IMG/VR virus record: IMGVR_UViG_3300024429_000007
Location: 1 to 64,000 of that record
Length of the DNA stretch: 64,000 nt
DNA from: an uncultured virus (IMG/VR IMGVR_UViG_3300024429_000007)
Lineage: Duplodnaviria; Heunggongvirae; Uroviricota; Caudoviricetes
Reading direction: 5' to 3' (one strand)
The notes beneath the pieces are model-generated. The model was given only the letters and a program-made list of their open reading frames with translations, made no database searches and had not been told where the DNA came from. The translations under genes and the position numbers were made by a program. Positions 1,892 to 29,796 of the stretch are shown here, one piece after another. How positions within the stretch are numbered: position 1 is the first letter of the stretch; every line of letters starts with the position of its first letter.

Positions 1892-2715
1892 ATCAATTCT
1901 TTCAAACTAATTTGGGTCGACTTTACTGCGACGATTGCTTATCGATAATGACTGAAATGGCAACCGGATTGGTTGATCTAACTGTCACATCGCCTCCGTA
2001 TGGGAAGCTCAGAGAATATCATGGTTATTCCTTCAACTTCGGGAAAATTGTAAAAGAACTCTATAGGATCACCGCTCCCGGAGGCGTCGTCGTATGGGTC
2101 GTGGGTGACGAGATTATCGATGGATCGGAATCTGGAGTAAGCTTTCGGCAGGCTCTTTACTTTATGGATCTCGGTTTCAAATTACACGACACAATGATTT
2201 ACCAGAAGAATGGGCCGACTCACCCTGAGTTTATTCGGTATCATCAGGTTTTTGAGTTTATGTTCATCTTCAGCAGGGGGAAGCCAAAGACTGTAAATCT
2301 TCTGATGGATCGGCCGAACAAATGGCCGGGATCCTGGGGGCGAACTTCCTTTCGGAACAGGGATGGGACACTCGACAAAAGAGATAACAAAGTTCCGTAC
2401 AAGAAATTCGGCATCCGATTTAACATCTGGCAGATCAATTCAGGGTACGGTTTTACGACCAAAGATGAGATTGCATACGAACACCCGGCGATTTTCCCTG
2501 AAGCCCTTGCCCGCGATCATATCCGAAGCTGGTCGAATCCGGGTGATTTGGTCTTTGATCCGATGGTAGGTTCCGGTACGACCGCTTTAGAGGCCGAGAA
2601 GTTGAAGCGGCGGTGGATTGCTTGTGATGTCAGCAAAGTGTACTGTAAGATTGCCACTCACAGGATCAAAAAAGTCTGGGGTCGGCTTGCTCTGGATTTG
2701 AAGGTAGCAATTTAA
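1888..2715 (+). CDS. DNA amino-methyltransferase, beta class (N4-C/N6-A)
   Basis: TSPPY catalytic motif, HPAIFP, DPMVGSGTT SAM motif at C-terminus. Confidence 0.92.
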   Translation: MNQFFQTNLGRLYCDDCLSIMTEMATGLVDLTVTSPPYGKLREYHGYSFNFGKIVKELYRITAPGGVVVWVVGDEIIDGSESGVSFRQALYFMDLGFKLHDTMIYQKNGPTHPEFIRYHQVFEFMFIFSRGKPKTVNLLMDRPNKWPGSWGRTSFRNRDGTLDKRDNKVPYKKFGIRFNIWQINSGYGFTTKDEIAYEHPAIFPEALARDHIRSWSNPGDLVFDPMVGSGTTALEAEKLKRRWIACDVSKVYCKIATHRIKKVWGRLALDLKVAI

Positions 2716-2729
2716 TAAAAGAGAAGACT

Positions 2730-3071
2730 ATGAGAAGGAATTTGATGGAAAACCCAACGAGGATCGTCTCAGTCTTCACCTATGAGGTGGAGTATGAAGT
2801 TGTGAACCCCAAACTTCCAACGATGGTCACGGCCACTGCTCATATCTGTGGCGGATATGAGTTCATTGTCCGATCTCATCCTTATGGGTTTGGGATGTTT
2901 ACGGCGGATGGTTGGACTTTTGGGTTTGGCGGCAAGGGTTATTGGCTCAATACCACTGTCCTGGAGGATGCGATTGCTGAAGCTGAGCGACGTCTCCTCC
3001 TCTGGGCCAAACAGGGTCAAGCGTGGTATCAGGCTGTTATTGGTGAGTATCCTGAAGAGCAGGCAGAATGA
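2730..3071 (+). CDS. hypothetical protein
   Basis: ORF in tightly packed operon. Confidence 0.65.
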   Translation: MRRNLMENPTRIVSVFTYEVEYEVVNPKLPTMVTATAHICGGYEFIVRSHPYGFGMFTADGWTFGFGGKGYWLNTTVLEDAIAEAERRLLLWAKQGQAWYQAVIGEYPEEQAE

Positions 3072-3310
3072 GAAAACATCGTTTTAGATTGATGCGGACC
3101 GAATTGTGTCCGACACGAGATGGGAATTGGAAGGATGCGGGCTTGTATAAGTGCGAACACTGTGAGACTACGCGACACCTCCATCCCTGGGAATTAAGGG
3201 AGATCGAGATTGCCCTTGCCAAATGTTCATCCTCCCCAATCAAGGCAGGTTGGTGGGAGCTTGCGAAAGGTAAAATTGATTGTGCTTACGATGCCAAAGA
3301 TCAGAAGTAA
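3068..3310 (+). CDS. small hypothetical protein with CxxC
   Basis: ATGA coupling, CEHC motif. Confidence 0.55.
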   Translation: MRKHRFRLMRTELCPTRDGNWKDAGLYKCEHCETTRHLHPWELREIEIALAKCSSSPIKAGWWELAKGKIDCAYDAKDQK

Positions 3311-3812
3311 GAGAACATCGACCACCGAATGGGAAACCCCGCAAGATTTCTTTGAGACTCTGGATCGGGAATTCCATTTCACTTTGGATGTCTGTGCCAC
3401 CCCAGAGAATACGAAATGCCAGAGGTTCTTTACCAAGAAAGAAGATGGCTTGAGACGGGATTGGTCAGAGGAAATTATTTGGCTGAATCCGCCGTATGAC
3501 AAAGATATAGTCAAATGGATGGCGAAAGCTTATCTAACGACTCGGAAGGGTGGACTCGTCGTAGCCCTGATCTCCGGTAAATCAACCGATACTGTGATGT
3601 GGCATAATTGCGTTATGAGATCCGATGAAATCAGATTTGTGAAGAACAGATTACACTTCAGTTCGAATGGAATGTCCAGACGAGCTAATTTGTCGAGCAT
3701 CGTGGTCATCTTCCGGCCGTTTTGTGAGGGCCCTCCTCGGACCTGCTCTATCTCCACTTCGGGTCAAATCCTCGATTACAAATGGGAAAGGAAAAGTTTA
3801 TGGAAAACGTAA
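3291..3812 (+). CDS. phage N6-adenine DNA methyltransferase (phage Dam family)
   Basis: EWETPQ, FTLDVCA, DGL..DW, WLNPPY, EIRFV..RL motifs; ATG at 3291 preferred. Confidence 0.9.
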   Translation: MPKIRSKRTSTTEWETPQDFFETLDREFHFTLDVCATPENTKCQRFFTKKEDGLRRDWSEEIIWLNPPYDKDIVKWMAKAYLTTRKGGLVVALISGKSTDTVMWHNCVMRSDEIRFVKNRLHFSSNGMSRRANLSSIVVIFRPFCEGPPRTCSISTSGQILDYKWERKSLWKT

Positions 3813-4171
3813 AGGAAGTCCCCATATATAAAGCGGGCTCGATCGGAAATCAGATAATTCCAGACGTTTCCATTCTGATCGCTGGTGAACTTCCCGATTT
3901 CAAGGAGTTAAAAGAACACGCGGAGTTATATGACCGTGATGCTGAGAAAATCGTAGAGGCTTTGCGATCTCTACCAGGTGGGACTTGGAATAGAGTACTC
4001 GTCAAGATGTTAGAGAGGCAACTTTCTTATCTTCGCATATCACTTTTTCCTCTGCCTCCCGAGGCGAAGACTATCCCAATCTGTTATGGTCAGGACAAAT
4101 CCGTGGTCCATACGAGTCCAGAGTACGGACATTATGCAGATGAAGGCGTTGGAGAAGAAGGTAATGAATAA
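3800..4171 (+). CDS. hypothetical protein
   Basis: ORF with purine-rich RBS, coupled to neighbours. Confidence 0.65.
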   Translation: MENVKEVPIYKAGSIGNQIIPDVSILIAGELPDFKELKEHAELYDRDAEKIVEALRSLPGGTWNRVLVKMLERQLSYLRISLFPLPPEAKTIPICYGQDKSVVHTSPEYGHYADEGVGEEGNE

Positions 4172-4436
4172 AATCATCTTTCCGTTCGGAACTGAAGACG
4201 GCCAAGTTGCATCGACTACAACAGAATCCATAGAATCAGATCCTCCCCTTCCCATCGAACAATTGAGGGAGATTTTCGCTGAATTTGCTATTGACCATAA
4301 GACAACGTACTTCATCGTAAAAGTATCGGGGGAGGGTGTAGATGTCATGCCGATTTCTCAACTCGCGGGCGATCAGCTTTGGAGATCGATGAAGTCGCTC
4401 TGGAAGATGGTTAAGTCGGTGTCATCCGATGAATAG
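4164..4436 (+). CDS. hypothetical protein
   Basis: GAAGG RBS before ATG 4164. Confidence 0.55.
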   Translation: MNKIIFPFGTEDGQVASTTTESIESDPPLPIEQLREIFAEFAIDHKTTYFIVKVSGEGVDVMPISQLAGDQLWRSMKSLWKMVKSVSSDE

Positions 4437-4445
4437 AAAGGATCT

Positions 4446-4733
4446 GTGATGAGTCATACAGAATGGTGGGCTTTAGCTTTAGCACTCATCTTAATCGTAC
4501 TCTCGATCCTCGTTTTTCTGCTCCTCGGGAAAAAGAAGTGGATCAGTACAAATAGACGATTGCCGCATCCTGGTTCGGGGGTTTTCATGTACATTGAGAA
4601 GTTTAGTGGCGTAGGTAAATTCAGAGCGGGAAAGTTTGTGAACGATGACGAATGGCTATTCGATGCTGGAATCCTGCGTAATAACGAGATTTCTCACTGG
4701 CAACTTTTGCCGGAGCGACCGAACAATAATTGA
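4446..4733 (+). CDS. DUF551-like protein with N-terminal transmembrane helix
   Basis: WISTNRRLP ... ISHWQLLPE pattern; hydrophobic N-terminus. Confidence 0.65.
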   Translation: MMSHTEWWALALALILIVLSILVFLLLGKKKWISTNRRLPHPGSGVFMYIEKFSGVGKFRAGKFVNDDEWLFDAGILRNNEISHWQLLPERPNNN

Positions 4734-13776: not shown

Positions 13777-14137
13777 ATTCCCAAAATTTTTTTACGTTAT
13801 CTTTCCTTCGAATGCGAATATGCAGATGATTGATAGTCACGTGCCACCCGATATGAGTCACTACTTCAAATTTGTCCAGTTTCATCATTACCGGGAGTTG
13901 CAAAAGCAGACTGGCAGCCATCGCCAGATTTTTCGGAGTGCATTCGATATGTTTCTTCGGAATCAAAAGGATATCATCGGACTTGATGTCCTTGATCGCC
14001 ATTGCAAATTCGGTTTCAAAATATATCGTAGCCGGGGTTCTTTTAGCTCCGATCTCACAAAAGACGCATCCTGGTTTTTCTTTGAGTCCGTAAAGCATAT
14101 CGTTTTCAGGGTCTTTACCAGTCGGCGCGGTACTCAA
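13775..14137 (-). CDS. HIT-family nucleotide hydrolase, variant triad
   Basis: CVFCEI, DI, LLIPKKH, HLHIR. Confidence 0.8.
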   Translation of the reverse strand: MSTAPTGKDPENDMLYGLKEKPGCVFCEIGAKRTPATIYFETEFAMAIKDIKSDDILLIPKKHIECTPKNLAMAASLLLQLPVMMKLDKFEVVTHIGWHVTINHLHIRIRRKDNVKKFWE

Positions 14138-15467
14138 AGTTGGGCTTCAGGCCGAGTCCGGAAAATGCCCTCTCAAAGTCGATTGCCTCGACTAAATCGG
14201 GCAGACCAAGCAGATCGGATTTCCACGAAATGATTCCTGCGCTCCGAGCAAGATTCGTAAGTACTTCATTTGGAGTCGATCCGCTTTCCAGTTTTTTAAT
14301 TGCAGGTGGGCTTCCGATGAATTTGCTCAATTTGACTTGTCTGCGATCGACCACCATCCCATGAAAGAGATTGTTCGCCACGTATCCGATAAGCTTTCCG
14401 GCTTCTCTTTCCAACATTGTGAAGGGTGCGATGTCCGATCCTCTGATCGAGTGTGTGATCCCGGCCTTCTGATCGTCTAATGCCGAAGTGAAACAAAGAT
14501 CCGGAATTCTGTTGAAATAAATCGCAACGTCAAGCGGAGCTTCGGACCGAACTCTAAGAACGGTTCGAGCGTTACGCAGATTACCTTTCTTTTGTAGATC
14601 TCTGCAATGATCGTCGTAGTAGTACTCGCGCTTGATCTCGTGGCACAGTTCATTTACCTCAAGCGTAATAAAACGAGTCTTGACCGGAGCAAACGAGAGC
14701 TGGTCGGCGACGGCGCCCTCGTAAGCGCCATTCGTTCTCGATGAGACGCAGAAGTTATTTTCTCGGGTTATAGAGACAAGTCCCCCGATACACAGTCCAT
14801 CTGGAATGCGAAGCCTGTAAGATTTCACCGGGTAAAAATTCCACAGCACTTCTACCGCTCCGACCCAAACTTCTTGACCAAGATCGATAGTTAAGTGAGT
14901 ATCACGGGGAGGGTCGCACAGCGCACCGACTTCATACGCCTTCCAGGATCTTTCCGAACCGTCTGTGACGTTTTGAGCTTCATATCCCTTTGCTTCGGTG
15001 CTGGCTTGTACCTTTTGGCCCAACGCCACGTCTCGACGGGTCTCCGCTCGGTTGGCGTCGAACACTTTTATCCGCTGAATCTCGCAAGGACCGGGATATT
15101 TTTCTTCTCGGATCAGAGCCTTCAAGTTCGATTGGTCAAATCGGGTGCGCTCAAAAATATCGCCGGCCGTGCAATCGCAGAAATATACTCTCGGATCGCT
15201 TGCGATTTCCTCGATCTGCTGTCGGTACCATCCTCTGCTATCGCACTGCCAAATGATCCTGTCCGGACATAATCCGAAAGTTTCGAGATCCCGGATGAGG
15301 TCATCGCCAATCTTTCTTCGCTGGTCGCCCACCTTCTGTCCATCCAATCTAAGATAAAATAACCCTCCCTCTCGCTTGGCAAAGGCATAATTCAGAAGAG
15401 CGTTGTAGAGCGTCCCCAAATGCAAACTCCCACTCAGAGTCGGCGCAGCTCGGGTAATAACTTCCAT
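14115..15467 (-). CDS. glutamyl-tRNA synthetase catalytic-domain paralogue with inserted F5/8 type C (discoidin) domain
   Basis: TRAAPTLSGSLHLG (HIGH), YFCDCT, YDDHCR, DD..GITHSIRGSD, KLSK; insert VALGQKVQAS..AQNVTDG..W..LTIDLG..TRFITL. Confidence 0.85.
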   Translation of the reverse strand: MEVITRAAPTLSGSLHLGTLYNALLNYAFAKREGGLFYLRLDGQKVGDQRRKIGDDLIRDLETFGLCPDRIIWQCDSRGWYRQQIEEIASDPRVYFCDCTAGDIFERTRFDQSNLKALIREEKYPGPCEIQRIKVFDANRAETRRDVALGQKVQASTEAKGYEAQNVTDGSERSWKAYEVGALCDPPRDTHLTIDLGQEVWVGAVEVLWNFYPVKSYRLRIPDGLCIGGLVSITRENNFCVSSRTNGAYEGAVADQLSFAPVKTRFITLEVNELCHEIKREYYYDDHCRDLQKKGNLRNARTVLRVRSEAPLDVAIYFNRIPDLCFTSALDDQKAGITHSIRGSDIAPFTMLEREAGKLIGYVANNLFHGMVVDRRQVKLSKFIGSPPAIKKLESGSTPNEVLTNLARSAGIISWKSDLLGLPDLVEAIDFERAFSGLGLKPNFEYRADW

Positions 15468-15478
15468 CAGATCCTCCT

Positions 15479-16381
15479 TCAGCATCCATTGTATCCGCTG
15501 ATAACAGAAACGGTTCCGTCAGCATTATTTGTCACAAAAGCTTTCTCTAAACTCTCATCGCAAATAACTCCGTAAGGGACATCCCCGACATCAATAGTCG
15601 CCGAAACTGTATTCGACGCGGTATGGATAATGGATACCGTGTCCGAACCAGAATTAGCTACGAATACTTTTCCGGCAGTCTCATCACAAGCTACGCCGTA
15701 TGGCTCAACTCCAACTCCAATAGTGGCTGAAACAGTATTCGATGCGATGTGAATCACAGAGACCGAATTCGAATCACGATTTGTTACAAAGGCCTTCCCG
15801 GCGTTTTCGTCAACAGCAACTCTGTGAGACTGGACTCCCACATTTATTGTAGCGGAAACAGTATCTGATGCGGTGTGAATCACAGATACTGTCGCATCAC
15901 GACTAACCGAAAAAACTTTACCTGCTGACTCATCACACGCAATTCCAGGGTTGCTGCTTCCCACAAGAATTGTCGCAGAAACCGTATTCGTGGGAGTATG
16001 AATAACGGTGACTGCGGCCCAACTGTGAAGTGCAATATACGTCTTCCCGGCACTCTCGTCGCAATCAACGCCATCGGGATGTTTTCCTACAATTACGGTA
16101 GCTGAAACAGTGTTCGATGGCGTATGAATCACCGATACTGTATCTGTAGTCGATCCTGATCGATTCGTTACAAACGTCTTTTCCGCCGTTTCATCACACG
16201 CCACTCCAGTAGGCGTAATCCCTACTCCGATAGTGGCTGAAACAGTGTTAGACGTAGCATGGATAACGGATATGTTATCCGAACCTGAATTTGCCACAAA
16301 TACCTTTCCAAGTATTTCGTCACAAGCGAGCAAGAGCGGAGAAGTTCCAACTCCTATTGTCGCTTCAACCACGATTGCCAT
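15479..16381 (-). CDS. YVTN beta-propeller repeat protein (7 repeats)
   Basis: Repeated ATIGVG..P.GVACDE..GK.FV.N..S..VSVI. Confidence 0.9.
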   Translation of the reverse strand: MAIVVEATIGVGTSPLLLACDEILGKVFVANSGSDNISVIHATSNTVSATIGVGITPTGVACDETAEKTFVTNRSGSTTDTVSVIHTPSNTVSATVIVGKHPDGVDCDESAGKTYIALHSWAAVTVIHTPTNTVSATILVGSSNPGIACDESAGKVFSVSRDATVSVIHTASDTVSATINVGVQSHRVAVDENAGKAFVTNRDSNSVSVIHIASNTVSATIGVGVEPYGVACDETAGKVFVANSGSDTVSIIHTASNTVSATIDVGDVPYGVICDESLEKAFVTNNADGTVSVISGYNGC

Positions 16382-22358: not shown

Positions 22359-22997
22359 TCATTGATATACTTCTACTCGGAATTCACCTACCCAATCGAA
22401 AACAGTCTCCCGGAATCGGTGAGGAAGATTAACACGGCTTTTTTTTGCATTTGCGAATAGAACATAATCCTTCCAGGCCTTCACGGCAGAACTATCGATT
22501 ACTTCGTTCCATAATGCAGAAGAAAGGAAAGTCGGCTTCTTTTCAAAAACCAAAGTATTCGTATAAAAAGAAACCAACCAGTAGTGGTATGGTAGAGGAT
22601 GAAGCATCTCTTTGAAAGGCGATGGCGTCTTGATCCGGCCACGTGCACCGATTCGCATCAATTCTTCGCAGGCCGCTTTTGGATCGAGAATATGTTCAAG
22701 GATATGAGAACACCAGATAAAATCAAAGCTTTCGCTCCTGAAGGGCAGCGCCTCAACTCCGGACAGCAAAAACTTCCGACCTTGATATACCGGAATCAGA
22801 TCAGGATTCATATCGACCAGTACATCCGCCCGGGGGAATGCCGATTCAGTAAGCTGAACCCGAGGAGCACCCGGACCGCATCCAATATCCAGTACGCGAT
22901 CATCTTCCCAGATTCCGTAATCTAAAGCAATTTCATCTCTCGTCCAGCGCGGACGATGCTCTTTCGCTCTCGGTCCCAGATCGGCAAGCGTTACCAT
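22359..22997 (-). CDS. SAM-dependent methyltransferase (type 11)
   Basis: VLDIGCG, LPF..FD, SHILEH. Confidence 0.88.
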   Translation of the reverse strand: MVTLADLGPRAKEHRPRWTRDEIALDYGIWEDDRVLDIGCGPGAPRVQLTESAFPRADVLVDMNPDLIPVYQGRKFLLSGVEALPFRSESFDFIWCSHILEHILDPKAACEELMRIGARGRIKTPSPFKEMLHPLPYHYWLVSFYTNTLVFEKKPTFLSSALWNEVIDSSAVKAWKDYVLFANAKKSRVNLPHRFRETVFDWVGEFRVEVYQ

Positions 22998-23962
22998 CCC
23001 AATTCCTCAGCACTCTTTCCATAGTACGGATGCTCCAACATAACCACAGGATAAGTCCCAGTAAATTTTTCGAGATGTTCTTCGACCGACTCATCGTAAA
23101 TTCCAGTCCAGATTTTATGATACGTTTGATAGTACTCCATGATTTCTCCGTCGTTCGATTCAAGGATCGGTGCACACCATCGCTTCATTCTTTCGTCGCC
23201 ACCGCCTCGTGCAACCAGGTTTCGAGTCGCATGCGCCCATCGCAGAATATGTCGTTCCATTTTCTCCGGAGTATGCACCCATCCGAAGTGTAGAATATCA
23301 AAGAGACCGGCCGGCTCGAAAAGATATAGTTTTTCGCCTTTCTTGTCAAGCGTTTTTAATTCTTGGAATCGAGTACGCCGAAGACCCAATTCCATTTTCT
23401 GGCCAAGTCGATAAGGTCGTTGTCCAAGAATCTCAATGTCGGGGAGATATTTCCAAAAAAGCCCGGAGTCGATATAGTTACACATCTGAAGATAATCTTC
23501 TCCGACTGTGAGGATATGATTCAAATCGAGGAAAAACATCAACTCTTTCGCCGCGATCATCCAGATTGAAGGATATCCGATTACCAGATTCCGGAGACAT
23601 TGGATCTCTCTTGGTCGATACACCGCGTCCGAATCCAAGATTAAACAATAATCTGTATTCGAACTGACATTCTGATGGCAATGTCTTCGCAAGTCATTTA
23701 CCGATTGCTGCCAACCGTACCGGATGTACTTGATCTTATGATCTGCGTCTTCATCGAGCATGCGTTGAATCTCCGCCTGTGTACCGTCGGTTGAGAGACC
23801 TTCTTCGGTTAAAAACCCTTGCTCGATTGCCTCTCTTCCATATCGATTTCGGGCGGCGCCCTCCACGATGACGATCTCTTCGACCACATCATAGATCGAC
23901 TTCAGCGCGAAGTAAACGTAATCCTCTTCGTTAATCACCACCATCTGAACTGTGAGCTTCAT
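22991..23962 (-). CDS. GT2-like glycosyltransferase, paralogue 1
   Basis: NEEDY..LKSIYD..VEG, STDGT, LDSD, HFGWV. Confidence 0.82.
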   Translation of the reverse strand: MKLTVQMVVINEEDYVYFALKSIYDVVEEIVIVEGAARNRYGREAIEQGFLTEEGLSTDGTQAEIQRMLDEDADHKIKYIRYGWQQSVNDLRRHCHQNVSSNTDYCLILDSDAVYRPREIQCLRNLVIGYPSIWMIAAKELMFFLDLNHILTVGEDYLQMCNYIDSGLFWKYLPDIEILGQRPYRLGQKMELGLRRTRFQELKTLDKKGEKLYLFEPAGLFDILHFGWVHTPEKMERHILRWAHATRNLVARGGGDERMKRWCAPILESNDGEIMEYYQTYHKIWTGIYDESVEEHLEKFTGTYPVVMLEHPYYGKSAEELGW

Positions 23963-24650
23963 TTGTCCCTCTTTTGAGATACCGGATGCTGTCTGTACCA
24001 CAATTAAAAAATAGATCAAGAATGGACAACCCGGGGATGAACTCATTTCCGAGTTGAGGGTACTCGAATTGTTGAAAGCTCGAATACGTCAGGCGAAATC
24101 CGGAATCCTCGAAATTCTCAGCGATTTGATAACTCCTCGCTCCGTTACCCGAGAGATATTCACTGCCTCCGACAGCTCTCAAGATTTCAATGATCCTGTT
24201 CTCTTTCGTCGCTTGAACTTTCAAATCGGAAGCAAGGATGAACTCAGATCCGATTCCGAACACTCTCGCAAGAACCTGAATCAACTCTATGTTCAGATCA
24301 CAGAGCTTTTCGTAAGGCCTTCGTAGTACGCACTCGATGACCGGAAACCAACGCTCAAAGTACTCCGCCTTGCCATAATTCTGCTGAAGCGTCCGCACCA
24401 TTTTCGGTCGCCACGGAGTATTCACTATCTCGACACTCTGAATCTTCTGCCCGGAGCGCCCCTTCGTCCGAATGGGAACGGTGAGCCATTGGGGTCCCCT
24501 CGGCGTCCAGATGCTGCAACGATTGGTGAAGCTACCCTTTGAAAATGGAACATCGTCCAGAAAGACGAAGATATCGCAGTGTGCCATCTTGTAAAAATAG
24601 CCGAGCCAGGGAGCAAAGTTGGGCTGGTGTATGGCGACGGTGCAACTCAT
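23931..24650 (-). CDS. WbqC-like protein
   Basis: AIHQPNFAPWLGYFYK, FVFLDD, NR, WLTVP, YLSG, LSILDL. Confidence 0.92.
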   Translation of the reverse strand: MSCTVAIHQPNFAPWLGYFYKMAHCDIFVFLDDVPFSKGSFTNRCSIWTPRGPQWLTVPIRTKGRSGQKIQSVEIVNTPWRPKMVRTLQQNYGKAEYFERWFPVIECVLRRPYEKLCDLNIELIQVLARVFGIGSEFILASDLKVQATKENRIIEILRAVGGSEYLSGNGARSYQIAENFEDSGFRLTYSSFQQFEYPQLGNEFIPGLSILDLFFNCGTDSIRYLKRGTNEAHSSDGGD

Positions 24651-26664: not shown

Positions 26665-27660
26665 TCAGTCCCACCATTTCAAATCGTAGAAAGGAGACCT
26701 CTGATCACCCTCGGGGTCCTCGTGTCTGAACCACTCTTCCGGTTTATCGAAATAAGGATGTTTCTGAATCAGCCCATCGAGAGGATACGATCCCTTGAAC
26801 TCATCCACATGTTCAACATCGGTATCTAAGACCTTGGTATAGAATTTGTGGTACATCCTCAGCCAGTCCATCAGCGTCTCCCGTCGCCGATCAGGAAGTA
26901 CGAGACGGTTCTTCTCCATCGTCTGTGGAGCGAAAAACTTCCGCATGAGCTGAACTTCCATTCGCTCCTTCAACTGGACATTTCCAAAGTGGAATACGTC
27001 CAGCAAGTCGGGACTGTAAACAATGTATTTCTGATCTCCGTACTCATATTCACGAAGACGCAAAAAATCAATCCAGTCAATCTTGGTTCGTTCACTGGTA
27101 CTCCCGTCACCGAACCAAATTGTTCGTTCTCTTTCAAAATACATCGTCGGGTTATACCTGAAAAAACACCAACGCCAATAATCCTTTCGTTCTATTCCAG
27201 TATGTAGGACGTGCCGGAAGTCCCAGATAAATGACCAACAGTATTCCGCCACTTCATAAACTTGGGGATATGTCTTTAAGACTTTTTTTGCCTTCAGAAT
27301 ATTTCTTGGCTTAAAGAGACAATCCCCATCCTGAATGAGTTCGATGTCGGTATCCTCGGGCAACATCGAGTGCGCTTTGTTCCGAAGATCCTCCCAACTG
27401 TGCACAAAGCCAACTTGTTCATAATGCACCTTCCCTTCGGGATCGTCATTGGCAATGAACCTTTGGACTTCCTCGCCAGTATTATCCAACGATAGCCCCT
27501 CACTTGTTGCAGGAACGTGGTCGTACTTATTATGGAAAACATCGTGCGTGATCGCACCCTCAACAACGGCGATGTAATCGACTGCCGGATATGATGATTT
27601 TAAGGCCCAGTAAACATAAGGCTGGTCATTGAGAGTAAGCATGTGACAACCAATTTTCAC
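26665..27660 (-). CDS. GT2-like glycosyltransferase, paralogue 2 (homologous to the CRISPR spacer)
   Basis: GTG start at 27660 with AGGAG RBS; NDQPY..LKSSYPAVD..VEG, DGD, HFGNV. Confidence 0.82.
   Translation of the reverse strand: MKIGCHMLTLNDQPYVYWALKSSYPAVDYIAVVEGAITHDVFHNKYDHVPATSEGLSLDNTGEEVQRFIANDDPEGKVHYEQVGFVHSWEDLRNKAHSMLPEDTDIELIQDGDCLFKPRNILKAKKVLKTYPQVYEVAEYCWSFIWDFRHVLHTGIERKDYWRWCFFRYNPTMYFERERTIWFGDGSTSERTKIDWIDFLRLREYEYGDQKYIVYSPDLLDVFHFGNVQLKERMEVQLMRKFFAPQTMEKNRLVLPDRRRETLMDWLRMYHKFYTKVLDTDVEHVDEFKGSYPLDGLIQKHPYFDKPEEWFRHEDPEGDQRSPFYDLKWWD
27565..27600 (-). other. resident protospacer-homologous segment (27/36 nt identical to spacer, all differences synonymous), preceded by TTA
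   Basis: AAA TCA TCA TAT CCG GCA GTC GAT TAC ATC GCC GTT versus spacer AAG AGT TCG TAT CCC GCT GTC GAT TAC ATC GCA GTA. Confidence 0.9.
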
Positions 27661-27692
27661 TATATCATCTCCTGATGCTGCCAGTGAACGAT

Positions 27693-27802
27693 GTTTCAAT
27701 CCTTGTTTTAATGGATAGCGTTCTTAAACTACTGCGATGTAATCGACAGCGGGATACGAACTCTTATTTCAATCCTTATTTTGATGGATAGCGCTCTTAA
27801 AC
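27693..27802 (-). CRISPR. CRISPR mini-array: two 37-bp repeats, one 36-bp spacer (27730-27765)
   Basis: Repeats GTTTAAGAGCGCTATCCATCAAAATAAGGATTGAAAT and GTTTAAGAACGCTATCCATTAAAACAAGGATTGAAAC (33/37 identical), with the ATTGAAAC 3' handle. Confidence 0.9.
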
Positions 27803-27808
27803 TTTCCT

Positions 27809-28810
27809 TTATAGTCCTTCTTCCAGTCCAAACCAATGCTTACTCTTTCCAAAAAATGGATGACTGCGAAGCATCTGATCCATCGGATACTTACCTAAAT
27901 ACGGAACAACTCGCTCTCCAACTTTGTCATCGAAAATACCTGTCCAGATCTTGTGATACAATCGGTGATAATCCAAGATCTCCTCGGCACTCATATCTAT
28001 AAATGGCATCCAATAGTTTCGGTCCGTATCCGTGACTTTCTCTGGATCGTGTTTCAGAAGCCATTGCAACCTGAGCACTCTCGACCAAGTCGTCTTCAGC
28101 AGATGCGCCTCTATCGCCATTCTACGCCCAACCCATCCAAAATGCCAGAACTGAAACATCGGCGGATATACTGCGACATCATCTTTCGTTCCTTCCAACT
28201 GATCGGGGCGAACCTCGAGGATCGGATGCAACCAGCCCTCCGGTTCAAACTGGTTATCGAAAAAAGAAATCTCCCCCTTATATCTCAATCGCTCATCGTA
28301 TCGGTAGAAGAGACACGCCAAATGATGACCATACGGCCGCTTGTATTCTTCATTGATCTGGAGAACATGGTGCATATCCAGAAAGAAGATCAATTGATCG
28401 GAATAGACGACTCGAATGTTTGGATACTGTTCACAGAGACTCTTAACCTGCTGAAGTTGCGACTCATCATACAGATGATCCGCATCTGCCACTAAAATAT
28501 AATCCGTATCCTTCGGGCACTCCCGTAAAGCAAGCTCTCTCAGCGTTCCAATCGTCGGCTGGAATCCAGCCTGGATATACTTAATCTTACCTTCCGAATC
28601 GTATTCTTCGATAAACCTCTCAATCTCTCCCTCCGTATTATCAAGTGACAATCCAAACCGATCGAAAGAACCAAATTCCTTCCATTTATCTTTAGCCACA
28701 CCTTCCACTATGACGATATGATCCACTACATCGTAGATCGATCTCAGCGACCACCAGACCCAATCCTCTTCATTTATTACAATCATCAATGCTGTAAGTT
28801 TCAAAGCCAT
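27809..28810 (-). CDS. GT2-like glycosyltransferase, paralogue 3
   Basis: NEEDW..LRSIYD..VEG, DAD, HFGWV, YHKIWTG. Confidence 0.82.
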   Translation of the reverse strand: MALKLTALMIVINEEDWVWWSLRSIYDVVDHIVIVEGVAKDKWKEFGSFDRFGLSLDNTEGEIERFIEEYDSEGKIKYIQAGFQPTIGTLRELALRECPKDTDYILVADADHLYDESQLQQVKSLCEQYPNIRVVYSDQLIFFLDMHHVLQINEEYKRPYGHHLACLFYRYDERLRYKGEISFFDNQFEPEGWLHPILEVRPDQLEGTKDDVAVYPPMFQFWHFGWVGRRMAIEAHLLKTTWSRVLRLQWLLKHDPEKVTDTDRNYWMPFIDMSAEEILDYHRLYHKIWTGIFDDKVGERVVPYLGKYPMDQMLRSHPFFGKSKHWFGLEEGL

Positions 28811-29796
28811 CCGAAGTCCCTCCTCTGCATGCCGAAGAAGGGATGATCTTTCATTGGAAGCGGATGCTCTCCCACTGCCTCCCACAAGATTTGGTCGCAT
28901 CGGATCCGATTGACCTTCGATGGAGGAAATTTTTGAAGAACATCTTCATCGGGCAAGATCCCCGTCCAGATCGGATTATACGTTTCGATGAACTCGGTTA
29001 GCTCCTGATCCGAAGATTCAGCCCGAACATTCAGCCCGGAATACGCATCAGATCTGCGATACGTCTGAAGAACCCGCTCGATCATCTTTTCACGTTTCCG
29101 AACCCACCCGTAATGATACTGTGGAATTACCCGCTTTCGCAATGTAATTCCATCGAGCCCTTGTTCCTGTGCATCTTTGATTCCTGTTTCGATGTCATCT
29201 TGAGCAATCCAAGGTAGCCACCAATTTATCAGAGGTTCGCCCTCGAAGTAAGGATTGTGTTCAGCGCTTTTCTCGGGATAGTACTCTCCTGGATAGAACT
29301 TTCTGAACATCGTTCCGCCAGTCGGTTCCAATTTGCCCATTTTCTTTGAAATCCGGCGAGTCCAGAAGTCCAGATAAAAATGGATCCGATCCACAGCAAC
29401 GCCACACAATCTCGGATGATCCGAGAACATCTGCCGAACTCGCAAAATGTCCAACGCCTTGTAACATTCATCCGCATCTACGTTGAGGAAATGAGTGGTC
29501 TCTCGTGGAAAAAGATCCACTGCATGGTTTGCCAATTCCGCGTAGTTTTTCGCAAAACCGTATTTGTAATTCCAAACCTTTCCATCCGGATCGTCGTTGG
29601 CGATGAATCGTTCAATCTCCTCGGAGCTACGATCTATCGAGAGTCCGGATTTGGAATAAAAACCCTCAATCCTTCCGTACTCTCCGATACATCCTTCGAC
29701 GATCACAATTGCATCGACAGCATCGTACATCGACTTTAGAACGTACCAGATATAGTCCTCTTCGTTCAGGAACAGTACTCGAGCTGTCAGAAACAT
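28801..29796 (-). CDS. GT2-like glycosyltransferase, paralogue 4
   Basis: NEEDY..LKSMYD..VEG, DADE, HYGWV, IWTG. Confidence 0.82.
   Translation of the reverse strand: MFLTARVLFLNEEDYIWYVLKSMYDAVDAIVIVEGCIGEYGRIEGFYSKSGLSIDRSSEEIERFIANDDPDGKVWNYKYGFAKNYAELANHAVDLFPRETTHFLNVDADECYKALDILRVRQMFSDHPRLCGVAVDRIHFYLDFWTRRISKKMGKLEPTGGTMFRKFYPGEYYPEKSAEHNPYFEGEPLINWWLPWIAQDDIETGIKDAQEQGLDGITLRKRVIPQYHYGWVRKREKMIERVLQTYRRSDAYSGLNVRAESSDQELTEFIETYNPIWTGILPDEDVLQKFPPSKVNRIRCDQILWEAVGEHPLPMKDHPFFGMQRRDFGWL

Follow-up and report, generated by a model that had tools for sequence, protein, structure and literature searches.

A cas-less CRISPR mini-array beside the phage gene that its spacer resembles: a conserved module with a candidate role in conflict between viruses

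The 64,000-nt stretch analysed here (the window; positions 1 to 64,000 of IMG/VR record IMGVR_UViG_3300024429_000007, from an uncultured tailed phage) carries a CRISPR mini-array that is not accompanied by cas genes. It takes up the space between two genes that run in the same direction and lies, like them, on the minus strand. It consists of two direct 37-nt repeats, 92% alike and 73 nt apart, in a single orientation that is also the direction of the genes. Read along the minus strand, a gene for a protein of 363 amino acids (27809..28900) ends 6 nt before the first repeat. The upstream repeat (27766..27802) has the 3' end ATTGAAAT and is followed by a 36-nt spacer (27730..27765), which in the frame of the downstream gene reads KSSYPAVDYIAV, and by the downstream repeat (27693..27729), with the 3' end ATTGAAAC. 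A 32-nt trailer (27661..27692) then holds the AGGAG ribosome-binding site of the downstream gene, which itself occupies 26665..27660 and encodes 331 amino acids. Within this gene, at 27565..27600 on the same strand, is a protospacer-like site that resembles the spacer and is preceded by TTA at 27603-27601, in the position of a protospacer-adjacent motif (PAM).

An original prediction, drawn by a model from the letters of this DNA, had described the two 37-nt repeats and the 36-nt spacer, and had set the start of the neighbouring gene about 30 bp downstream. The array coordinates proved exact to the base, and the gene start is placed at GTG 27660, 32 nt past the array, because all homologues of the downstream protein begin with MKIG. 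The family has 12 members including that of the window, the 11 homologues being 57-82% identical, and the exact 12-residue peptide specified by the spacer occurs in four of the 12 (P0001, which is the window's own, P0004, P0005 and P0009). An AlphaFold model of the downstream protein has a mean pLDDT (predicted local distance difference test score) of 65 and is good for the first ~220 residues only; in Foldseek searches it matched the glycosyltransferases SunS, SpsA and WrtF with E values of 3e-8 to 1e-6 and a template-modelling (TM) score of about 0.4. On its homologues and this predicted fold, the product is a putative GT-A-fold glycosyltransferase. Protein-guided scans returned one locus in the viral contigs (G001, described below) and four in the metagenome contigs: G001, L019, L020 and L021, the last 23% identical. 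Orthologous DNA was read for three lineages, namely window/G001, L019 and L020, with stretches of 9.0 kb compared for L019 and 4.6 kb for L020.

The window is part of a 71,287-nt IMG/VR record (G000), which across 71,245 nt shares 99.996% identity with G001, a record of 117,770 nt rated 87% complete. Among the phage proteins are a tape-measure protein, a head-tail adaptor, SbcCD-like nucleases, a thymidylate synthase, DNA methyltransferases and an Amidase_3 endolysin, and the tail genes together with this endolysin indicate that the host is a bacterium. No match to a Cas model (PADLOC, E ≤ 1e-6) was found among the 124 open reading frames (ORFs) of at least 100 amino acids in the 87%-complete G001.

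Both repeats match the Rfam family CRISPR-DR7 (RF01320) over their full length, on the minus strand only and above the gathering score of 37, the upstream copy at 37.8 bits (model positions 1-37) and the downstream copy at 50.5 bits (E 4.9e-9). The Rfam alignment of the repeats contains an AUCCA...GGAU hairpin and the end AUUGAAAC/U. The 3' 24 nt of the repeat (ATCCATTAAAACAAGGATTGAAAC) are identical to those of arrays adjoining type I-B cas operons, and this core recurs in the CRISPR arrays of bacteria and archaea from many phyla, in at least 127 stretches, from which 80 loci were fetched. In all five bacterial loci with the core that were checked (L075, L079, L050, L062 and L028, with L039 left out and 30 of 70 ORFs of at least 150 amino acids submitted), the array adjoins type I-B cas genes, the products encoded beside it being Cas8b, Cas7/Csh2, Cas5b, Cas3, Cas4 and/or Cas1. 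Of these loci, L075 belongs to Tepidibacter formicigenes DSM 15518, a strain that can be cultured. Judged by these neighbours, the repeat family goes with type I-B systems, which bears out the I-B part of the 'I-B/III' repeat type that the original prediction had named. The array of the window shares with such CRISPR-DR7 arrays the full-length match to the model and the 24-nt 3' end; it differs from them in having two repeats only, in an upstream copy that ends in T, and in its 5' 13 nt, which differ from those of every array among the 80 loci.

Some further repeat-bearing sequences were noted. A second cas-less mini-array lies outside the window and outside G000, at G001:16837-16942 (L005 1500-1605). 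It has two copies with the same repeat core, of which the upstream one (in the sense of the CRISPR RNA, crRNA) is degenerate in its 5' half, and a spacer of 34 nt; this spacer has no DNA or peptide look-alike in G001, and a 26-nt core of it matches itself alone in IMG/VR. In the same sequencing run as the window, a 103-nt contig (run X1, record 3), aligned to window 27693-27725, has an unrelated 40-nt spacer flanked by two similar repeats, which differ at 2 letters over 33 nt and at 1 letter over 24 nt. A comparable array therefore co-occurs in the same sample, and the contig may be a fragment of the host's array; its spacer matches G001 at no more than 24 of 40 positions. None of the 1008 spacers parsed from the 80 host loci matches G001, the best being a mis-parsed repeat and chance matches of 14-16 nt, and the five distinct spacers from internal arrays of 2-3 repeats in the fetched host loci have no convincing self-match nearby.

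The spacer of the window is identical to the site at 27600-27565 in 27 of 36 positions and, translated in that gene's frame, gives an unchanged peptide of 12 residues. The nine mismatches, at positions 3, 4, 5, 6, 9, 15, 18, 33 and 36, are all silent, and the perfect run is distal, covering positions 19-32. Here the original prediction was reproduced exactly in the peptide identity and the mismatch positions, and its TTA before the resident site was likewise confirmed. The next-best ungapped matches to the spacer in the window are 22/36 on the plus strand and 21/36 on the minus strand, and the binomial expectation of a match of at least 27/36 over 128,000 sites is 1.4e-4. None of 300,000 random sets of nine substitutions kept the peptide. 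That all nine mismatches are silent argues, against this background, that both sequences evolved as coding DNA. The substitution pattern thus makes the spacer a fragment of an orthologous coding sequence, derived from a variant of the adjacent gene, rather than a decayed resident copy. A diverged self-duplication was considered as its source and rejected, since a non-coding copy would not gain silent changes alone.

The extent of the divergence is not unusual. The original prediction had spoken of a 'recoded' copy, but within this 36-nt stretch the alleles of the window and L019 already differ from each other at six silent sites, and those of the window and L020 at 10 sites. By these comparisons, nine silent differences in 36 nt, including the switch between the serine codons AGT and TCA, amount to the ordinary divergence of a moderately distant orthologue. 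The resident alleles of the window, L019 and L020 all begin AAA TCA TCN, whilst the spacers of the window and L019 both begin AAG AGT TCG, so that mismatches 3, 4, 5, 6 and 9 separate the spacer from all three known alleles. In each carrier, then, the homologous site is mutated relative to its own spacer, by nine mismatches in the window, including seed positions 3, 4 and 5, and by 10 in L019.

L019 has its mini-array at the same place, beside a protein identical to that of the window at 258 of 328 residues and a gene identical at 755 of 984 nt. Its spacer agrees with that of the window at 34 of 36 positions, and the two changes, at 15 and 18, are both silent in the frame of the gene (two random changes would both be so with a probability of 0.05). 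In L019 the upstream paralogue is separated from the array by three additional genes, for an 82-aa ORF, a SIS-domain protein and a dual-specificity-phosphatase-like protein; this insert (2592-3839) amounts to 1.27 kb relative to the window. Since the array is kept beside the downstream gene despite the insert, it stays with the downstream and not the upstream gene. The differences between the upstream and downstream repeats are common to both phages, which implies that the unit is homologous throughout and was inherited, or transferred, in one piece. That the locus is a chimera created when phage and host-array sequence were assembled together was rejected, the array being at the same site in this independent, diverged record. 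In L020, whose protein is 69% identical, there is no array: the two genes overlap by ATGA where the window has a module of 157 nt, and the L020 junction AGGAGACGATA is the counterpart of the end of the window's trailer. The AGGAGAYGATA of the trailer thus also forms the gene junction in this array-less relative.

The module runs from GGACTATAA, 15 nt ahead of the first repeat, to the base preceding the start codon. Its 15-nt conserved 5' flank (27803..27817, minus strand; GGACTATAAAGGAAA) marks the start of homology with L019, despite the other gene upstream in L019, and in the window it includes the final codons and the stop codon (27811-27809) of the upstream paralogue. Over the module, the window and L019 are identical at 151 of 159 positions (95%), the trailer contributing 29 of 32, whereas at the 4-fold degenerate sites of the gene they agree at 41 of 92 (45%). 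In the 9-kb alignment with L019, the four best 60-nt windows (0.95-0.97) all fall in the module, where the median of all 316 windows is 0.75. At the start codon this high identity breaks off: the opening 30-nt bins of the gene score 21, 23 and 25 out of 30, and the stretch that runs from there to the end of the protospacer is identical at 74/96, the same as the gene average. Non-coding DNA that had merely drifted would be barely alignable at this distance, so the module is either constrained or was moved laterally far more recently than the genes diverged. The alignment thus places the module under strong constraint, or marks it as recently spread between lineages; it is not junk.

Two finer details of the module were seen. 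In the comparison of window 27661-27817 with L019 3842-4000, the trailer differs only in three adjacent bases, GCA in the window against ATG in L019, which coincide exactly with one codon of a possible ORF from TTG 27699, within the downstream repeat, which may be a coincidence. Window 27803-27826 (GAAGAAGGACTATAAAGGAAAG) and window 27655-27680 (CAGGAGATGATATAGTGAAAA) both resemble the single junction of L020 (GAGGAGACGATATGAAG), and this likeness looks like an imperfect duplication around an insert, although it is weak and judged by eye only.

The locus is best read, in our view with fair though far from complete confidence, as a cas-less single-spacer mini-array that turns the host's type I-B CRISPR system on related phages while its own copy of the target gene is spared. 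The array would be transcribed with the surrounding minus-strand operon, host Cas6 would cut the transcript into one crRNA, and this single crRNA would be loaded into the type I-B Cascade of the host. In such processing, Cas6 leaves an 8-nt 5' handle. Cascade and Cas3 would then destroy co-infecting related phages whose glycosyltransferase orthologue has the allele matching the spacer (AAG AGT TCG TAT CC...). The phage's own copy would escape through its nine silent mismatches, which include seed positions 3, 4 and 5; seed mismatches block type I interference. We infer all of these steps, that is, transcription, processing, loading and interference, and with them the existence of a sensitive rival. 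Such a crRNA would run in the sense of the mRNA, an orientation that suits DNA targeting and rules out base pairing with the transcript. The module's conservation, as the best conserved block in 9 kb with L019, argues for function or for recent spread.

Mini-arrays in phages and prophages were reportedly described by Faure in 2019, according to papers that cite that work. Close parallels come from the portogloboviruses SPV1 and SPV2, which, in the passages of Medvedeva 2019 (PMC6858448) that concern them, have cas-less mini-arrays whose spacers match the other virus, the orthologous locus of the carrier having point mutations or deletions that prevent self-targeting. The same source describes mini-array spacers as matching regions near the array in related viruses, an observation repeated in PMC8616872 and PMC11656645, and a passage in it calls this proximity of target and array unexplained. 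The cost of carrying a nearly self-matching spacer was modelled by Iranzo 2020 (PMC7099407). To judge from its sequence, the present locus has every feature of the published mini-array class but an identified target.

It is this last point, with several others, that weighs against such a role. The original prediction had expected near-perfect matches to the spacer in array-less relatives, and none came to light in IMG/VR, where a codon-degenerate scan for the 12-residue peptide gave the array and the resident site of G001 alone. The orthologous loci match the window's spacer at 25/36 in L019 and 22/36 in L020, and the GenBank phages contained no homologue, as DNA or as protein. The allele represented by the spacer is absent from all sequences searched, with a best match, apart from the arrays, of 28/36 among the three orthologous lineages; neither the window nor L019 is the target of the other (25/36 and 28/36), and the contigs of the run that includes the stretch show the same phage and no variant allele. 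Hence, of the proposal that the spacer is aimed at the orthologue of a sister phage while the resident copy is immune, the coding-orthologue origin and the seed mismatches at 3, 4 and 5 stand, and the matching target was not found. Nor did the repeat point to a host, the best full-length match being only 33/37 among the 80 loci fetched from at least 127 stretches. The upstream repeat ends in T and not in C. No promoter of its own is evident for the array, sigma-70 and terminator scans giving nothing above shuffled expectation; the sole promoter-like site in the sigma-70 scan overlaps the start codon, and no leader was recognised at the array. One DNA run, from which the stretch probably derives, is listed as containing it, and no RNA run is. 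Finally, the spacer has been kept at 34/36 while neighbouring silent sites neared saturation, which is a poor fit with the rapid arms-race turnover described in passages of PMC6858448 and PMC8616872.

The original prediction had gone on to propose that a cut of the rival allele by host Cas, repaired from the carrier, would copy both the array and the immune 5' end of the gene, in the manner of a homing endonuclease without a protein. Homing of this kind would suit the presence or absence of the array at one site (occupied in window/G001 and L019, empty in L020), the retention of the module beside the gene it resembles even with a different upstream neighbour (the three extra genes of L019), the 95% identity of the module against 77% for the flanking gene, which is compatible with lateral spread, and the target-array proximity for which a passage of Medvedeva 2019 (PMC6858448) offers no explanation. 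Free-standing homing endonuclease genes of phages are likewise optional inserts between conserved genes, beside the would-be cut site and with a resistant resident site, but here there is no nuclease gene, no co-conversion tract to the putative cut site and no sensitive allele observed. In the one pair available, window/L019, the drop from 95% to 77% comes at the start codon, short of the protospacer, and the 74/96 identity through the protospacer means that guide and allele were not co-converted in that pair. The array-less L020 carries the same AAA TCA TCN seed as the carriers, so the presence of the array does not co-segregate with the 'recoded' 5' end as homing would predict, and no cleavable allele was found, this sole array-less relative matching the spacer at 22/36. 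Cas3 degrades DNA over long distances, which predicts kilobase-long conversion tracts, and none was seen. We therefore consider homing unlikely. It is also doubtful, if a little less so, that the 157-nt module is a selfish or mobile cassette which spreads between diverged phages and settles upstream of a look-alike gene, with the host's type I-B Cas as its sole 'enzyme', and thus an equivalent of a homing element that is guided by RNA and encodes no protein; the idea draws on the 95% identity of the module against near-saturated flanking silent sites, on its sharp boundaries, on the empty site in L020 and on the linkage to the matched gene even where the upstream neighbour has changed. No literature was found that joins mini-array, gene drive and phage, and in the review PMC11656645 the term 'homing' is used of CRISPR transposons.

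In a decoy or anti-CRISPR RNA, similar to the Racr units, the repeats would soak up host Cas6/Cas7 or dilute the host crRNAs and the spacer would be irrelevant. Repeat units with which viruses inhibit Cas complexes have been documented (PMC10651486 and PMC11656645, in the portions that treat them), the phage has two separate repeat-bearing loci, and a target was found for neither spacer; yet Racrs are solitary repeat units, whereas here two full repeats surround a spacer of normal length and coding origin, and this spacer is as conserved as the repeats (34/36), with two changes silent in the frame of the gene, which would not be expected of filler. Such a decoy is improbable. The locus could also specify a regulatory crRNA-like RNA (CreA or 'crlRNA'), with which Cascade binds the adjacent phage gene, or a host gene, without cutting it. 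Like the Racr units, CreA-type RNAs and regulatory mini-arrays are short repeat-bearing loci that exploit host Cas, with partial complementarity nearby, and those of partial complementarity are described as widespread, in I-B loci and with phage copies, in sections of 10.1101/2023.03.03.530964 and 10.1101/2024.10.29.618823. The partial match here is in cis, 130 nt away, and long-term conservation of the spacer would suit a fixed regulatory target. However, the cases described in the part of 10.1101/2023.03.03.530964 that bears on this match in the PAM-proximal seed and mismatch distally, the reverse of what is seen here, where 3, 4, 5, 6 and 9 are mismatched and 19-32 perfect. The crRNA, being of the same sense as the mRNA, would not pair with it, and seed searches with both spacers over 819 kb of I-B-bearing host loci gave matches at chance level (at most 18/34), so that regulation seems very unlikely. 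The array may, lastly, be an inert passenger, a repeat-spacer-repeat piece taken once from a host array by recombination and merely carried. Recombination with host arrays is regarded as the route by which leaderless phage mini-arrays acquire spacers (in passages of PMC6858448 and PMC7099407), and neither promoter nor leader was recognised here. Neutral DNA, though, would be expected to diverge like the 4-fold sites, at 45%, rather than to form, at 95%, the best block in 9 kb, and the repeat differences common to both phages show a unit inherited or moved whole; we give this possibility little credence. Interference with related phages thus remains the reading that we prefer.

The array is set in a cluster of glycosyltransferase and methyltransferase genes. 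The upstream gene is a GT2-like (glycosyltransferase family 2) paralogue of the family with the N-terminal motif LKSxYxAVDxIxxVEG, as judged from Pfam and from paralogy; its Pfam match to Glycos_transf_2 is weak, and the L019 orthologue reaches 29.9 bits where the cut-off is 23.3. Tandem GT2/GT-A-like paralogues with this motif are found at 22991-24046, 26665-27660, 27809-28900 and 28801-29796 of the window and at 588-1583 and 1574-2584 of L019, and their neighbours, methyltransferase, WbqC-like, PIG-L deacetylase and heptosyltransferase-like genes, make up a large phage glycan-modification cluster. Elsewhere in the window, a 456-aa protein (14115-15485, minus strand) has the N-terminal portion of the catalytic domain of class I Glu/Gln tRNA synthetases (67.7 bits to Pfam tRNA-synt_1c), together with a weak match to an F5/8 type C domain, a combination unusual for a phage. 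A conventional protein-based homing element occurs at G001 1969-4566 (L010, minus strand), where an SNF2-type helicase is split by an intein with a LAGLIDADG homing endonuclease.

Set beside the virus-borne mini-arrays as passages of PMC6858448 describe them, the locus is alike in its 1-2 spacers, its lack of cas genes and its intergenic site, and also in a spacer related to a nearby gene and an own locus point-mutated against self-targeting; with phage mini-arrays it shares the absence of a host-like leader. The differences lie in the behaviour of the spacer. In that account the spacer that SPV1 has at a given position is not the one that SPV2 has there, taken as 'active spacer turnover', whereas here the same spacer (34/36) is found beside a flanking gene that is 77% identical; and each of those viruses has a reciprocal target virus, whereas here no reciprocal or matching target virus was found. 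The pattern as such has already been published for virus-borne mini-arrays, and the near-constant module beside diverged genes is a new observation.

Mini-arrays show phages borrowing host CRISPR machinery against each other, and published examples are few. The three lineages provide a natural experiment with three states of one site: occupied, occupied with a changed upstream neighbour, and empty. The arms-race picture does not predict that one spacer should stay nearly unchanged while the surrounding genes diverged to 77%. If it is true that the module is mobile or skews how it is inherited, it would represent a new class of selfish element guided by RNA; otherwise, it would be one further example, well documented, of a strategy already known, in a phage of the subsurface whose host probably has a type I-B system.

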